From: a virus
Taxonomy: Duplodnaviria; Heunggongvirae; Uroviricota; Caudoviricetes
Direction: 5' to 3' (one strand)
IMG/VR virus record: IMGVR_UViG_2690316243_000011
DNA length: 8,759 nucleotides
In this document: one piece after another, positions 802 through 8,010 of the stretch
Numbering within the stretch: the stretch's first letter is position 1
How the letters are laid out: each line of letters opens with the position of its first letter
The notes under the pieces: generated by a model
Told to the model about the DNA's origin: nothing
What the model saw: the letters and a program-made list of their open reading frames with translations, nothing else
The model's database searches: none
Translations under genes and position numbers: made by a program

Positions 802-804
802 GCC

Positions 805-1105
805 CACAAGAAAACCCCTCCGGAGAGGGGCTAAAGCCGCGTATCTGTATCATCATGCACATGGTGCCGGGTGCCTCCCGGTGAGTTCAGCCCGGTGCCA
901 CTAAACCCGCGTCATTCTCGTTTTGATAATCAGAGATTATACCGTCACCAGTCGCCCCTCCGCTCAGGGGGATTCACCATGCGAAATTTTTTTAACAAAT
1001 GCCCAGTCTGACAGGCAACTGTCAACTTACTGAATTGTGAGCAACATAGCATTTAACGGGGAACCTGTTTTCTGCAGTAAAAAGGCCCACCGGAGCGGAT
1101 GGGCC
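805..1105 (-). repeat. Copy L of a diverged structured non-coding module (hairpin-rich, bounded by terminator-like hairpins)
   Basis: Aligns with 1293-1540 at roughly 65-70 percent identity (by eye). Shared blocks include cccctccggagaggg, tgccgggtgcctcccggtga, gcccctccgc-N-cagggggattcaccatgc, ttttaacaaa, caactgtcaac, ctgaattgtgag and aaaaaggccc. No conserved ORF. Confidence 0.6.
808..830 (-). terminator. Terminator-like hairpin at the 3' end of module L (minus strand)
   Basis: Minus-strand RNA reads cccctc-tccg-gagggg (6-bp GC stem, 4-nt loop) followed by UUUUCUUG. Confidence 0.5.
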
Positions 1106-1292: not shown

Positions 1293-1540
1293 ACAGAAAA
1301 GCCCCTCCGGAGAGGGCTGGAGAGTGGCGCTATGTGCCATTGCATGATGCCGGGTGCCTCCCGGTGAATTCAGTACCAGCACCTGAATCCGCGATTATCC
1401 CATATACCTACTCGCTGATTGCCCCTCCGCACAGGGGGATTCACCATGCCAGTTTCTTTTAACAAACTCCCCGCAAAACAGACAACTGTCAACCGTCTGA
1501 ATTGTGAGACATTTAAAAAAAAGGCCCGCAAAAGCGAGCC
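1293..1540 (-). repeat. Copy U of the same structured non-coding module, directly downstream of tRNA-Arg(UCU)
   Basis: Same conserved blocks and hairpins as 805-1105. Its 3' end has a weaker terminator-like hairpin (ccctc-cgga-gaggg, 1303-1316) followed on the minus strand by GCUUUUCUG. Confidence 0.6.
1514..1540 (-). terminator. Intrinsic terminator immediately downstream of the tRNA cluster
   Basis: Minus-strand RNA: ggcucgc-uuuu-gcgggcc (7-bp stem with one G-U pair) followed by UUUUUUUUU (plus-strand A-run 1514-1522); lies 15-40 nt past the tRNA 3' end. Confidence 0.65.
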
Positions 1541-1554
1541 AGGGAAAATAAGTG

Positions 1555-1631
1555 TGGCGCGTTGTACTGGATTCGAACCAGTGACCGATTGCTTAGAAGG
1601 CAATTGCTCTGTCCGGCTGAGCTAACAACGC
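1555..1631 (-). tRNA. argO: tRNA-Arg (anticodon UCU), copy A, 77 nt, CCA encoded
   Basis: Reverse complement folds as a cloverleaf: acceptor GCGTTGT/ACAACGC, D-stem GCTC/GAGC, anticodon stem ATTGC/GCAAT with loop CTTCTAA, T-stem ACTGG/CCAGT with loop TTCGAAT, discriminator G, CCA. Symbol assigned only by analogy with the ileZ-argN-argO cluster of Stx phages (from memory). Confidence 0.85.
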
Positions 1632-1641
1632 TGAATACCGA

Positions 1642-1662
1642 NNNNNNNNNNNNNNNNNNNNN
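1642..1662. other. Assembly gap (21 N)
   Basis: Run of n at 1642-1662; the flanking sequences on the two sides differ, so the true distance and linkage are unknown. Confidence 0.95.
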
Positions 1663-1706
1663 TTTCAGTATAAGGCTCTGCCGGAAGGAATCTGGAAGAA
1701 TGAATA

Positions 1707-1783
1707 TGGCGCGCTGTACTGGATTCGAACCAGTGACCGATTGCTTAGAAGGCAATTGCTCTGTCCGGCTGAGCTAACAACGC
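1707..1783 (-). tRNA. argO: tRNA-Arg (anticodon UCU), copy B, 77 nt, CCA encoded
   Basis: Identical to copy A except one base in the 3' acceptor strand (ACAGCGC versus ACAACGC), which gives a G-U pair. Its upstream flank differs from that of copy A. Confidence 0.85.
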
Positions 1784-1796
1784 ATGATGCAGATAA

Positions 1797-1873
1797 TGGA
1801 CCGCCATCGGGGACTTGAACCCCGCGCAGCCAGCTTCGAAGGCTGGCGCTCTTTCCTGATGAGCTAATGGCGG
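1797..1873 (-). tRNA. argN: tRNA-Arg (anticodon UCG), 77 nt, CCA encoded
   Basis: Cloverleaf: acceptor CCGCCAT/ATGGCGG, D-stem GCTC/GAGC, anticodon stem CCAGC/GCTGG with loop CTTCGAA, T-stem CGGGG/CCCCG with loop TTCAAGT, discriminator T, CCA. The 5' base is C, which is unusual but paired. Confidence 0.8.
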
Positions 1874-1880
1874 TATGTGA

Positions 1881-1956
1881 TGGTGGCCCTTGCTGGATTT
1901 GAACCAGCGACCTGGCGATTATGAGTCGCTCGCTCTCACCACTGAGCTAAAGGGCC
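1881..1956 (-). tRNA. ileZ: tRNA with CAU anticodon, Ile2 (lysidine)-type by similarity to E. coli ileX; a tRNA scanner would probably call it Met
   Basis: GGCCCTTTAGCTCAGTGGTGAGAGCGAGCGACTCATAATCGCCAGGTCGCTGGTTCAAATCCAGCAAGGGCCACCA: anticodon loop CTCATAA, T-loop TTCAAAT, CCA encoded. It resembles the tRNA-Ile2 sequence as I remember it. Confidence 0.85.
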
Positions 1957-1965
1957 GGGAGCCGC

Positions 1966-1994
1966 ATAATAACGACGCGTAATTAATTCTTCAA
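1966..1994 (-). promoter_or_regulatory. Candidate sigma70 promoter for the tRNA cluster
   Basis: Minus strand: TTGAAG (1994-1989), 17-bp spacer, TATTAT (1971-1966); the predicted start falls 1-3 nt before the mature 5' end of the first tRNA. The -35 sits just past the methyltransferase stop codon. Pattern match only. Confidence 0.4.
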
Positions 1995-1996
1995 TA

Positions 1997-3055
1997 TCAT
2001 CCGTTCTGGCTGACTAAATCCTGTACTTCCCGAACCGTCTGCTCAAAACGTTCAGTCTCCAGCTCAACGCCAATTGCACGACGCCCGAGCGCCAGTGCCG
2101 CTTTCACTGTCGAACCCAACCCCATGAAAAAATCTGCAATCAGGTCACCCGGACGACTGCTAGCGCTGATTATCTGCTGCAGCATTTCTGCCGGTTTTTC
2201 GCACGGATGTTTCCCGGGATAGAACTGCACCGGTTTATGCGTCCACACATCGGTATACGGCACCTGCACCGTCACGCCAAAATACCGCCGCAGATGTTTA
2301 TATTCACTCAGCAGCTCCGCATACTGCCGGTTCAGTGAGGTATACGTATCCACCAGCTGGTGGTGGAGCTTTTCCAGTTCACCACGCCGATGCTTCTCTT
2401 CTGCCACCCGGGCAAACAGCGCCTGTAATTTCAGATAATCGCTTTCATTCGGCAACTGCCACTGACCGGCACTGAACCAGTGCGACACCATGTTTTTCTT
2501 TCCTGTGGCATCTGCAATCTGTTTTGCCGTTATCCCCAGGGCAGCTCGCGCATCACGAAAGTAAGAAATCAGCGGGGCCATCACATGCTGTTTCAGTGCA
2601 CTGCCCTTCGCCGCATACCCGGCATCTTTCGGACGATACGGCCCCTGATAATGTTCCGCGAACAGAATGCGCTCTGTGGCGGGGAAATACGCCCGCAGGC
2701 TTTCCTTGTTGCATCCGTTCCAGCGTCCGGACGGCTTCGCCCAGATAATATGGTTCAGCACACTGAAGCGTTCACGCATCATGATTTCGATATCAGATGC
2801 CAGGCGATGACCACAGAACAGGTAAAGACTTCCGGCAGGTTTCAGCACCCGCCAGAACTGCGCCAGACACTGGTCCAGCCACTTCAGGTAATCATCGTCG
2901 CCCTTCCACTGGTTATCCCAGCCCTCAGGCTTCACTTTAAAGTACGGCGGGGCCGTGACTATCAGGTCAACAGAATTTTCGGGTAACGACCGGATAAATT
3001 CCAGGCAGTCGGCGTTGATTAACTCACAACTGGATATTTTTACAGTATTAAGCAT
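1997..3055 (-). CDS. DNA methyltransferase, beta-class N6-adenine/N4-cytosine family; orphan, no restriction endonuclease partner
   Basis: 352 aa. Motif IV-like DLIVTAPPYF near the N-terminus and motif I-like DFFMGLGST near the C-terminus, in the beta-class order. Motif IV reads APPY rather than the canonical D/N/S-PPY (confirmed on the DNA: acg gcc ccg ccg tac). Confidence 0.85.
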   Translation of the reverse strand: MLNTVKISSCELINADCLEFIRSLPENSVDLIVTAPPYFKVKPEGWDNQWKGDDDYLKWLDQCLAQFWRVLKPAGSLYLFCGHRLASDIEIMMRERFSVLNHIIWAKPSGRWNGCNKESLRAYFPATERILFAEHYQGPYRPKDAGYAAKGSALKQHVMAPLISYFRDARAALGITAKQIADATGKKNMVSHWFSAGQWQLPNESDYLKLQALFARVAEEKHRRGELEKLHHQLVDTYTSLNRQYAELLSEYKHLRRYFGVTVQVPYTDVWTHKPVQFYPGKHPCEKPAEMLQQIISASSRPGDLIADFFMGLGSTVKAALALGRRAIGVELETERFEQTVREVQDLVSQNG

Positions 3056-3521: not shown

Positions 3522-3547
3522 ATAAAAAACCCGCTCGGCGGCGGGTT
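3522..3547 (-). terminator. Intrinsic terminator about 40-65 nt downstream of the Q stop codon
   Basis: Minus-strand RNA: aacccgc-cgccga-gcggguu followed by UUUUUUAUG. Confidence 0.6.
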
Positions 3548-3586: not shown

Positions 3587-4441
3587 TTATGACGAATTTA
3601 CCACAGATTCCGGAAAAATCAACCTAGTTACCTTTTTTAACTGCCGCTCAGCCCATGCTTCTTCAATATCAAACCGGGTCACCAGCGCATCATAAAATTT
3701 CTTAACTGTTTTTTCCCATGACGCGCGTGTTATCTGGTTTGTCACCTCGCATATAGCATTAAATGCCTCCGTTGATGGTAGTCTTTCATAGCCACGACCA
3801 CCACAACGCTGGCAGTCTCTGATAACAGGCATACCACGTTTTACCGACTCTTCACGATGAATGGCGACACCACGCCCACGGCAATCCTTACAGGCGGTGG
3901 AAACCTCACCCTTTCCGCCACACTCCGGACAGGCAACTTTTACCACCTCTCTGACTTTTTTCCATTCTTCCCAGTAAGACGGATACACACCTTTCGTACA
4001 CTTTGCCCATACCGGCGGCTTACCATCCGGATACTGGATCTTGTTTGTAAAAACCTCGCTTTCAATAAATTTTTTTCCGTGACAGCAGGGGCACTGTTTT
4101 TTGCTCGCCGCGCTACGGGCATAATCTTCAAACGCATACGAAGCCATAATACGCATCACTGCCGGTTTTATTTCTGCCGGGAGTTTTCTTAACGCCGCCA
4201 CGCGATCACACCGACTGAGTGCATATTCTGTCAGCAATTCTGTTGCCCGCTCTCTGTCATTCATACTAATGCCCATTTTCCCAAGGAACGCAGAAACCCC
4301 CATCTCAGCCCGATTCTGTGTCATGCCCTGCGCGGCCATCACATCAGTGATACTCAGCGCATCTTTCGACGTTGAGGCCGATGCATCAGTCAGGCCGGGG
4401 GATTTTGGGGAGTAGTATTTCGGTAAATCTTCCAGTTTCAT
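3587..4441 (-). CDS. Q: Late-gene antiterminator Q, Q82/QuuQ-type, with CxxCxGxG zinc-finger repeats; complete copy
   Basis: 284 aa. Motifs CPCC, CPECGGKG, CKDCRGRG and CQRCGGRGYERLPS, with a C-terminal segment WEKTVKKFYDAL resembling phage 82 Q / QuuQ as I recall them. Its ATG overlaps the stop of the upstream rusA fragment (ATGA). Position downstream of rusA is as expected for Q. Confidence 0.7.
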   Translation of the reverse strand: MKLEDLPKYYSPKSPGLTDASASTSKDALSITDVMAAQGMTQNRAEMGVSAFLGKMGISMNDRERATELLTEYALSRCDRVAALRKLPAEIKPAVMRIMASYAFEDYARSAASKKQCPCCHGKKFIESEVFTNKIQYPDGKPPVWAKCTKGVYPSYWEEWKKVREVVKVACPECGGKGEVSTACKDCRGRGVAIHREESVKRGMPVIRDCQRCGGRGYERLPSTEAFNAICEVTNQITRASWEKTVKKFYDALVTRFDIEEAWAERQLKKVTRLIFPESVVNSS

Positions 4442-4551
4442 TTTTTGACCTGCCCTTCAAGCATTATGGGATAAATCTTCACCCCCAGACGTCCACCAGA
4501 TACTGGCTGAGCACGAACGATATTGATTTCATCAAACTGCTCATCGTCCAT
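4438..4551 (-). pseudogene. Duplicated 3' fragment of rusA (37 codons)
   Basis: Translates MDDEQFDEINIVRAQPVSGGRLGVKIYPIMLEGQVKK, matching the C-terminus of the full RusA ORF with a few substitutions. It begins at the duplication junction and ends in an ATGA overlap with Q copy 1. Confidence 0.6.
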
Positions 4552-5300
4552 TANAATTTCTTAACTGTTTTTTCCCATGACGCGCGTGTTATCTGGTTTG
4601 TCACCTCGCATATAGCATTAAATGCCTCCGTTGATGGTAGTCTTTCATAGCCACGACCACCACAACGCTGGCAGTCTCTGATAACAGGCATACCACGTTT
4701 TACCGACTCTTCACGATGAATGGCGACACCACGCCCACGGCAATCCTTACAGGCGGTGGAAACCTCACCCTTTCCGCCACACTCCGGACAGGCAACTTTT
4801 ACCACCTCTCTGACTTTTTTCCATTCTTCCCAGTAAGACGGATACACACCTTTCGTACACTTTGCCCATACCGGCGGCTTACCATCCGGATACTGGACCT
4901 TGTTTGTAAAAACTACGCTTTCAATAAATTTTTCCCCATAGCAACAAGGGCACTGCTTTTTACTCGCTGCGCTGCGGGCATAATCCTCAAAAGCGTACGA
5001 AGCCATAATGCGCATCACTACCGGTTTTATTTCTGCCGGAAGTTTTCTCAACGCCGCCACACGATCGCACCGACTGAGTGCATAATCTGCCAGTAATTCT
5101 GTTGCCCGCGCCCTGTCATTCATACTGATGCCCATTTTCCCCAGGAACGCAGAAAACCCCATCTCAGCCCGATTCTGTGTCATGCCCTGCGCGGCCATCA
5201 CATCAGTGATACTCAGCGCATCTTTCGACGTTGAGGCCGATGCATCAGTCAGGCCGGGGGATTTTGGGGAGTAGTATTTCGGTAAATCTTCCAGTTTCAT
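4551..5300 (-). CDS. Q: Second copy of antiterminator Q, C-terminally truncated at the duplication junction (249 aa, last codon contains the N)
   Basis: ATG at 5300 overlaps the RusA stop (ATGA). The protein is co-linear with Q copy 1 up to ...WEKTVKK, then a TTN codon and TAA. It lacks the last ~35 residues of copy 1. Confidence 0.5.
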   Translation of the reverse strand: MKLEDLPKYYSPKSPGLTDASASTSKDALSITDVMAAQGMTQNRAEMGFSAFLGKMGISMNDRARATELLADYALSRCDRVAALRKLPAEIKPVVMRIMASYAFEDYARSAASKKQCPCCYGEKFIESVVFTNKVQYPDGKPPVWAKCTKGVYPSYWEEWKKVREVVKVACPECGGKGEVSTACKDCRGRGVAIHREESVKRGMPVIRDCQRCGGRGYERLPSTEAFNAICEVTNQITRASWEKTVKKX

Positions 5301-5677
5301 TTTTTGACCTGCTCTTCATGCATTATGGGGTAAATCTTCACCCCCAGACGTCCACCAGATACTGGCTGACCACGAACGATATTGATTTCATCAAACTGCT
5401 CATCGTCCATTAGCAACCCCGCATGCGTCAGCGCATCCAGCGGCGCTTTCAGAATATTGTCCAGGTCACGACGGCGCTTATCCGGTGGCTCTGCAATAAT
5501 CTTTATCGCCAGTCTTCCGGACAGGCTTAATTTCAGCCGCTGCTGGCGAACAATAAGCGCCACTGCCCGGCGATAACGCTCCCCGGCTTTTGATACAAAA
5601 TATGTGCTGCCACGACGACGCCAGTAAGTGTTCACCGTCGGCGGGTAAGGTAAAACAAATTCTATGCGCTCGGTCAT
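5297..5677 (-). CDS. rusA: RusA-family Holliday-junction resolvase (endodeoxyribonuclease RusA)
   Basis: 126 aa with PDKRRRDLDNILKAPLDALTHAGLLMDDEQ, matching the conserved DRRRRDLDN acidic motif region of RusA. Its start follows the upstream stop directly (TAAATG) and its stop overlaps the Q start. Confidence 0.8.
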   Translation of the reverse strand: MTERIEFVLPYPPTVNTYWRRRGSTYFVSKAGERYRRAVALIVRQQRLKLSLSGRLAIKIIAEPPDKRRRDLDNILKAPLDALTHAGLLMDDEQFDEINIVRGQPVSGGRLGVKIYPIMHEEQVKK

Positions 5678-7563: not shown

Positions 7564-7719
7564 TTACTCCTCAGGTTCGTAAGCTGTGAAGACAGCGACC
7601 TCCGTCTGGCCGGTTCGAATTCGTACCTCGCAGAGGTCTTTCCTCGTTACCAGTGCCGTCACTATGACGGTTAAACAGATGACGATCAGGGCGATTAACA
7701 TCGCCTTTTGCTGCTTCAT
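7564..7719 (-). CDS. hokD: Hok-family membrane toxin (type I toxin), HokD/RelF-like
   Basis: Translation MKQQKAMLIALIVICLTVIVTALVTRKDLCEVRIRTGQTEVAVFTAYEPEE (51 aa) matches HokD/RelF as I remember it and is clearly Hok/Gef family. An in-frame upstream ATG at 7776 would add 19 residues (the 70-aa ORF in the track); I prefer the internal start. Confidence 0.85.
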   Translation of the reverse strand: MKQQKAMLIALIVICLTVIVTALVTRKDLCEVRIRTGQTEVAVFTAYEPEE

Positions 7720-8010
7720 AGCCTGCTTCTCCTTGCCTTTCGGCACGTAAGAGGCTAACCTAGATTTGCCGTTCATAGATTGAGCCTCAGATTAATGTTA
7801 AGCGTCTTGCCGGACGCGTAATGTTAACTGGGGCTTTTCTCTATCTGCCTTTTGGTGTTCATGCCTGAGACAGATAGCCTCAAGCACCCGCTGCAATTCT
7901 ACTTAACTCTCCTTTTCCCGCAAACCGTTTTTATCCCCAGCGGCAAATCGAATACACCACCAGCGCCACCGCCATCGCAATTCCTACCGTTGTTAATGCT
8001 TCAGGCCAGG

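Follow-up and report, generated by a model that had tools for sequence, protein, structure and literature searches.

tRNA genes located just after the late antiterminator are described for SfI, Sf6, ST64T, PS3 and phage 21, and a role in codon supply has been proposed for them (PMC3636060). These phages carry Asn(GUU) and/or Thr(UGU), however, and not the Ile2/Arg/Arg set considered here, for which the closest described system is that of phage 933W. The GenBank record of this phage (NC_000924.1) annotates, in order, a putative tRNA promoter (pT, 21082-21110), the tRNA genes ileZ, argN and argO (21120-21371) and a rho-independent terminator (21385-21408). A literature search on ileZ/argN/argO, and on rare codons and the tRNA genes of 933W, brought up no paper on the cluster, so that its status as a known feature rests on the GenBank annotation.

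By the window we mean the whole stretch of DNA that was analysed, which is the 8759-nt contig CXCY01000159.1 of draft assembly GCA_001258795.1. A 531-nt region taken as query matches 289 phage records, mostly of Stx2-converting phages, in which the cluster lies beside the same methylase gene as in the window. Among 5426 complete E. coli genomes, 3062 have a match. In the phage records, the annotation of the region beside the DNA methylase gene is either ileZ/argN/argO or tRNA-Ile/Arg/Arg.

tRNA genes, candidate promoter and terminator

Four tRNA genes on the minus strand of the window are called by both ARAGORN and the Rfam tRNA model, the latter with scores of 58-72.5 bits (gathering score, 29). 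All four have the CCA encoded at the 3′ end, and their anticodons, in minus-strand order, are CAT, TCG, TCT and TCT. The first-pass annotation had described four such genes, with the same anticodons and CCA ends, and the two programs agree with it on their places and on their folding as tRNAs. The first gene, ileZ (1881-1956; 76 nt; 72.5 bits), has a CAU anticodon, and is followed after 7 nt by argN, a tRNA-Arg(UCG) gene (1797-1873; 77 nt; 58 bits), and after a further 13 nt by the first of two tRNA-Arg(UCU) genes, argO copy a (1707-1783). These three genes are contiguous, and the tight packing claimed for all four does hold for them. It does not extend to the fourth gene, argO copy b (1555-1631), which lies 75 positions from copy a, 21 of them N. 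The two copies of argO differ at position 69, with a U4-G69 wobble pair in copy a and U4-A69 in copy b.

Assignment of the CAU tRNA to the Ile2 (lysidine) type, which had been suggested at first reading, is supported by its body, which is identical to that of K-12 ileX at 68/76 positions, versus 54/78 for K-12 metT, and which has the ileX-like features C4-G69, C5-G68 and A73; the RefSeq annotation of the same CAU gene is likewise tRNA-Ile. In 16 IMG/VR loci, an identical ileZ is followed by Lys(UUU)-Thr(UGU)-Gly(UCC) in place of argN-argO.

The acceptor stem of argN starts with C1 paired with G72, and U73 is present. A20 in the D-loop and C35 are identity elements for E. coli ArgRS, and both argN and argO possess them, since their D-loops (ATCAGGAAA and AGCCGGACA, respectively) have an A directly after G18 and G19, and their anticodons are UCG and UCU. 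Copy b of argO is identical to K-12 argU at 56/77 positions and has the same anticodon loop. Among 146 distinct regions, argN is absent from 46, and it has decayed in many related prophages. This decay implies that selection for an Arg-UCG function would be weak, and the function seems dispensable. In one stx2 phage locus (L010), argN has the anticodon TCT.

A consensus scan places a candidate sigma-70-type promoter, homologous to 933W pT, ahead of the tRNA genes on the minus strand (1966-1994). It consists of a -35 hexamer TTGAAG (1994-1989), a 17-nt spacer and a -10 hexamer TATTAT (1971-1966), exactly as had been noticed at first reading, and the methylase gene ends with its stop codon 2 nt ahead of the -35 hexamer. 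At the 17-nt spacing, 9 of 12 hexamer positions agree with the consensus, a match that by itself is not above chance (2 promoter-like sites seen, 0.9 expected in shuffles). What raises the candidate above such a match is its conservation footprint. In 47 distinct 60-nt upstream sequences, counted from the tRNA 5′ end, conservation peaks at TTG (-38 to -36) and TATTAT (-15 to -10), whereas the 20 columns upstream of the hexamers are poorly conserved. The hexamers are kept even where the sequence further upstream is unrelated, with the 17-nt spacing and the distance to the tRNA fixed, and they align onto 933W pT (TTGCAG-17-TATTAT). The stretch from the -10 hexamer to the tRNA 5′ end is GC-rich (GCGGCTCCC); because the hexamer ends 10 nt before G1 of ileZ, the predicted leader is only ∼3 nt long.

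At the other end of the cluster, a hairpin scan and folding identify an intrinsic terminator on the minus strand (1515-1540; GGCTCGC-TTTT-GCGGGCC + T8). Its hairpin (1540-1523) has a 7-bp stem with six GC pairs and a 4-nt loop, and is followed by eight T residues (TTTTTTTT), rather than the nine first counted. The hairpin has a folding energy of -14.3 kcal/mol (z = -4.6), which was not reached by any of 200 shuffled sequences. The same hairpin sequence is found in the 933W terminator annotated upstream of stx2A.

We propose that the operon would be transcribed from pT, constitutively in the lysogen, and that after induction the Q-modified polymerase probably also reads through from upstream. 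One might alternatively suppose that the cluster has no promoter of its own, that its tRNAs are made only in the Q-antiterminated late transcript, and that TTGAAG-17-TATTAT is fortuitous. Such an arrangement would fit 933W, where pR′ and qut precede the cluster on the same strand; it would also fit the window, where the Q gene is upstream on the same strand and the hexamer match is as weak as 9/12, with about the frequency of chance. We nevertheless consider it unlikely, because TTG and TATTAT are held at fixed spacing and distance across upstream sequences that otherwise diverge, and because a terminator right after argO fits an autonomous unit. Transcription from pT and Q-dependent transcription are, moreover, compatible with each other. 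A search for pR′ between the Q and methylase genes found terminator-like hairpins only, with no promoter-like site, so that read-through from Q in this phage type is still a matter of inference.

The N-run and the apparent second tRNA-Arg(UCU) gene

The apparent fourth tRNA is separated from the others by a run of 21 N (1642-1662), which represents an assembly gap or scaffold join. The first-pass annotation overlooked this run when it described four genes as one cluster; in fact, no determined sequence connects copy b with the cluster. On the minus strand, the 44 nt that follow copy a (1663-1706; TATTCATTC...CTGAAA) are the 3′ flank of argO from another prophage type, which has iraM among its cargo, and are 100% identical in many closed genomes (e.g., at locus L001); the IMG/VR locus L130 continues gap-free past the end of this stretch. 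Beyond the N-run, the 10 nt that precede copy b (1632-1641; TCGGTATTCA) are unlike the sequence that precedes copy a; they are the 5′ flank of argO in prophages with decayed argN. Both flanks of the gap occur in one prophage type (e.g., that of E. coli 4/1-1, with argN decayed and iraM downstream). The outer flanks, 5′ of copy a and 3′ of copy b, are of the type seen in the prophage of E. coli 042.

Each arm of the gap, taken alone, has a full-length, 100% identical match in closed genomes. Either arm may consequently be a genuine locus, and it is the join between them that is unsupported. Two simple accounts of this structure were considered and rejected: that one side of the gap is itself chimeric, since both flank combinations are exact in closed genomes, and that argO underwent a simple tandem duplication, since the flanks of the two copies differ.

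When positions 1632-1783 are deleted, the remaining sequence is identical, without gaps, at 1100/1100 nt to two IMG/VR assemblies (L072 and L133), which have exactly three tRNAs at this locus; both are also drafts, scaffolded with single-N joins at other places. These relatives also contain the other prophage type, and so competing reads would have been available. The contig has one other N, at position 4554. It marks the precise boundary between the two units of an 861-nt tandem repeat (3693-4553 and 4552-5412; 95.8% identical), through which the Q gene is present twice; E. coli 042 has a single Q gene. On this comparison, the Q duplication is false in the same manner as that of argO. The ends of the contig form a perfect 31-nt inverted repeat.

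The true locus, then, probably has three tRNA genes rather than four, the fourth being in all likelihood an artefact of scaffolding. Copy b is probably the single true argO, with copy a and the 75-position spacer making up the duplicated join, although copy b can equivalently be taken as the extra gene. In a short-read draft, the 77-nt argO repeat of co-resident prophages could have been joined, or gap-filled, with argO reads of the other prophage; judging from the usual behaviour of such pipelines, the likely course is an assembly with short k-mers, after which contigs were scaffolded and gaps filled across repeats that the prophages share. The difference at position 69 means that the two argO copies cannot simply be the same reads used twice.

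That same difference, between two intact tRNAs, is one reason to ask whether the four-gene arrangement might be real, a tandem tRNA-Arg(UCU) produced by recombination between co-resident prophages, in which the N-run merely hides ∼21 bases. Recombination at argO does occur naturally, as all four combinations of 5′ and 3′ flanks are found in closed genomes, and scaffolders sometimes join contigs correctly. We regard a real tandem as decidedly unlikely, however. A simple duplication predicts the same flanks on both copies, which is not what is seen, and a recombinant would require that the junction between the foreign 3′ and 5′ flanks be concealed exactly within the 21 N. With the extra copy collapsed, the sequence agrees at 100% with that of two three-gene relatives, the same kind of false duplication is found at the contig's other N, and a gap-free example was found in none of the collections searched. 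Specifically, no gap-free version with four tRNAs was seen in complete E. coli genomes, phage records, IMG/VR or metagenome contigs; among the best 30 phage-record or complete-genome matches listed, none covers more than ∼379 nt of the 531-nt query; the order Ile-Arg(UCG)-Arg(UCU)-Arg(UCU) occurs in 0 of 195 IMG/VR loci in which ileZ is identical; a gap-spanning pattern has no match in viral contigs or metagenome contigs; and genome contigs, scanned for TCGGTATTCA-argO, gave two loci only, both unrelated.

The flank combinations have a further implication. Because all four are 100% identical in closed E. coli genomes, we tentatively suggest that the 77-nt argO may act as a recurrent junction for homologous recombination, at which co-resident lambdoid prophages swap their downstream cargo (stx, iraM or STnc100), a possibility to which we would give somewhat less than even weight. 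Should the scaffold be correct after all, the odd join seen here would capture one such cargo exchange at argO.

Neighbouring genes, proposed codon supply and origin of the tRNA genes

The gene immediately upstream of the promoter encodes an N6/N4 DNA methylase (1997-3055, minus strand; Pfam PF01555, E = 7e-41), which is also the neighbour of the cluster in E. coli 042 and in Stx2a phages. Further upstream on the same strand is the gene for the late-gene antiterminator Q (3587-4441; Pfam PF03589). Downstream are two sRNA genes of the STnc100 family (1289-1478 and 802-1011, minus strand; Rfam), which fill the slot occupied by stx2AB in 933W. The overall order, on one strand, is hok/sok, a DUF968 gene, RusA, Q, the methylase, the tRNAs with their terminator, the two STnc100 genes and a truncated DUF1737/SASA esterase. 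The cluster is therefore located downstream of Q, between the methylase and a cargo slot that lies upstream of a nanS-p-type (SASA) esterase. No stx ORF is found in the window, where STnc100 sRNAs and the truncated esterase ORF lie downstream of the cluster. Although the cluster belongs to the Stx-phage type, the window gives no sign that the prophage carries stx.

Processing of the precursor would be carried out by host RNase P and 3′ exonucleases. Host TilS would convert C34 of ileZ to lysidine, so that AUA is read, and host ArgRS would charge argN and argO by way of A20 and C35, so that CGA/CGG and AGA/AGG are read. In this way, the cluster may supply tRNAs that are scarce in E. coli to prophage genes rich in the corresponding codons. 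The ORFs of the window (1715 codons) contain, per thousand, 12.2 ATA, 7.6 AGA, 4.7 AGG and 14.6 CGG codons. Usage in K-12 is about 4, 2, 1 and 5 per thousand, respectively, which makes these codons roughly threefold enriched in the window. The suggestion, made at the outset, that the three anticodons serve codons rare in E. coli fits this usage for ATA, AGA, AGG and CGG; CGA, at 2.3 per thousand, is not enriched.

A counter-defence role has been proposed for tRNAs of other phages, and tRNA-Lys(UUU) is a classic nuclease target. The tRNAs of the cluster might similarly be spares, which replace host tRNAs cut by anticodon nucleases or toxins instead of supplying rare codons, and the Lys(UUU)-Thr(UGU)-Gly(UCC) alternative that follows the same ileZ in 16 IMG/VR loci would agree with this. 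The anticodon loops of ileZ and argO, however, are the same as those of host ileX and argU (CTCATAA and CTTCTAA), and with identical loops these tRNAs would not escape a loop-specific nuclease. Given also that the three anticodons match the rarest E. coli codons, which are enriched in the prophage ORFs, a role as spares is very improbable here, and codon supply is the function that we favour.

The sRNA family STnc100, a relative of PasD, is already known from prophages, where it lies near Q genes of the PF03589 type and esterase genes, and the study describing this takes tRNA hits near prophage sRNAs for integration hot spots (bioRxiv 10.64898/2026.05.13.724894). Prophages do often integrate into tRNA genes, but the corresponding reading of the present genes, as remnants of host integration sites at prophage borders (bioRxiv 10.64898/2026.05.13.724894), is effectively refuted by the presence of the cluster in packaged phage genomes, e.g., the virion genome of 933W, and it is at odds with full-length cloverleafs with CCA for all genes, with a position inside the prophage between methylase and esterase genes, and with identities to host genes of only 68/76 (ileX) and 56/77 (argU). 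Nor, to our knowledge, does K-12 have an Arg(UCG) gene that could have been duplicated. At loci like that of the window, tRNA hits beside STnc100 are phage-borne genes.

Comparison with 933W and other known systems

The operon, its promoter and its terminator were already known, and what the window holds is a rediscovery of an annotated feature together with an assembly artefact. The cluster was annotated in 933W decades ago, and over half of the complete E. coli genomes carry it, so the result carries little biological weight; its practical value is that of a warning. Counts of tRNAs or duplications taken from draft contigs that contain N-runs are inflated by false tandem copies where several related prophages share short repeats, and the contig provides two cases, the Q gene and argO. 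Likewise, a tRNA hit next to STnc100 or another prophage sRNA calls for caution, since it can be a gene carried by the phage and need not be a remnant of an integration site.

Of the host genes, K-12 ileX shares its anticodon and anticodon loop with ileZ, and C4-G69, C5-G68, U12-A23, C29-G41 and A73 are kept between the two; they differ at the pair 27-43, which is an A27-C43 mismatch in ileZ and G27-U43 in ileX. K-12 argU similarly shares its anticodon and loop with argO, and A20, C35 and G73 are kept. For the UCG anticodon of argN, we know of no K-12 counterpart.

The prophage of E. coli 042 (NC_017626.1, 1417048-1418396) is ∼95% (95.5%) identical over 92% of the window, and has the same order of RusA, Q, methylase, tRNA-Ile, tRNA-Arg, tRNA-Arg, terminator, STnc100 and SASA esterase. 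It differs from the window in having three tRNAs and one Q gene, and its argN has mismatches in the T and acceptor stems.

The resemblance to 933W, already noted in the first-pass annotation, stands up to direct comparison. The window can be aligned nucleotide by nucleotide with the annotated features of 933W. Gene order, strand and spacing are the same, and the cluster is downstream of the Q gene and upstream of the SASA esterase gene in both. The ileZ genes are identical (76/76), and argO of 933W is identical to copy a at 75/77 positions and to copy b at 76/77, with position 37 being A in the window and G in 933W. For argN the identity is 73/77, with an identical acceptor stem that includes the same C1-G72 pair, and the same U73. 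This pair had been singled out as unusual; it is indeed present, but is, on the sequences compared, a family trait and not a peculiarity of the locus. The promoters are TTGCAG-17-TATTAT in 933W and TTGAAG-17-TATTAT in the window, and the terminator hairpins are homologous.

The main differences from 933W are that the window has the methylase gene directly upstream, as do many other Stx2a phages, that the cluster is followed by two STnc100 sRNA genes where 933W has stx, and that the window has an apparent extra argO, which we judge to be an artefact. The cluster thus agrees with that of 933W in gene order, identity, promoter, terminator and genomic position. We consider it likely, with a probability of roughly 0.85, that the locus is the ileZ-argN-argO operon of 933W-type lambdoid E. 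coli prophages, here with STnc100 cargo and with an artefactual second Arg-UCU gene.

Flanks of argO and variation of the tRNA cluster

The argO gene (Arg-UCU) occurs with two different 5′ flanks and two different 3′ flanks, and closed E. coli genomes contain all four combinations of these as 100% identical matches. The comparison took in window positions 1534-1641 and 1687-1796, together with 2443-2573 of L001 and 9315-9420 of L002 (two further loci), and across the flank combinations position 69 of argO is either G or A. Since all four combinations exist in closed genomes, the sequences imply that recombination breakpoints would fall inside or beside the 77-nt gene.

The rest of the cluster is also variable among IMG/VR loci that share an identical ileZ. 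In 16 of these (e.g., L137 and later loci), Lys(UUU)-Thr(UGU)-Gly(UCC) takes the place of argN-argO after ileZ, while in many others argN is absent or decayed. One stx2 phage locus, L010, has an argN whose anticodon is TCT rather than TCG.

The Q region and the contig ends

Positions 3693-5412 form an adjacent direct repeat with a unit of 861 nt and 95.8% identity between the copies, and the single N at 4554 is the exact junction of the two. The repeat doubles the gene for the antiterminator Q (PF03589), giving one complete ORF (3587-4441) and a second copy (4551-5300) that is cut at the N. The related prophage of E. coli 042 has Q in one copy, versus two here, and the repeat therefore looks like a second scaffolding artefact of the contig. 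Both contig ends (1-31 and 8729-8759) carry a perfect 31-nt inverted repeat, TGGTAGTGTCCGCTATTGCCAGTACACCTCA. It is probably a remnant of the assembly graph, of k-mer size, and lies beyond the region homologous to the 042 prophage.

A terminator-like hairpin (AACCCGC...GCGGGTT, then a T-run; 3528-3547, minus strand) lies 40 nt 3′ of the Q stop codon, and we consider it a candidate tR′. The interval separating Q from the methylase gene yielded no promoter-like site. Elsewhere in the window, a hok toxin ORF (7564-7776, minus strand; PF01848) is overlapped by a match to the sok antitoxin RNA (7714-7889, minus strand; RF01794, 112 bits), so that the pair spans 7564-7889.

The slot following the tRNA terminator

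Directly 3′ of the tRNA terminator the STnc100 sRNA occurs twice on the minus strand, in copies that have diverged from each other (1289-1478 and 802-1011; RF02076, 123.6 and 161 bits, respectively); this RNA is related to PasD sRNAs according to a 2026 preprint (bioRxiv 10.64898/2026.05.13.724894). A nanS-p-type esterase gene breaks off close to the contig end, leaving its 5′ part as a minus-strand ORF at 13-579 (188 aa) that encodes DUF1737 together with the beginning of a SASA esterase domain. In Stx2 phage 933W the cargo slot is occupied by stx2AB, whereas in the window the same slot holds the STnc100 copies.
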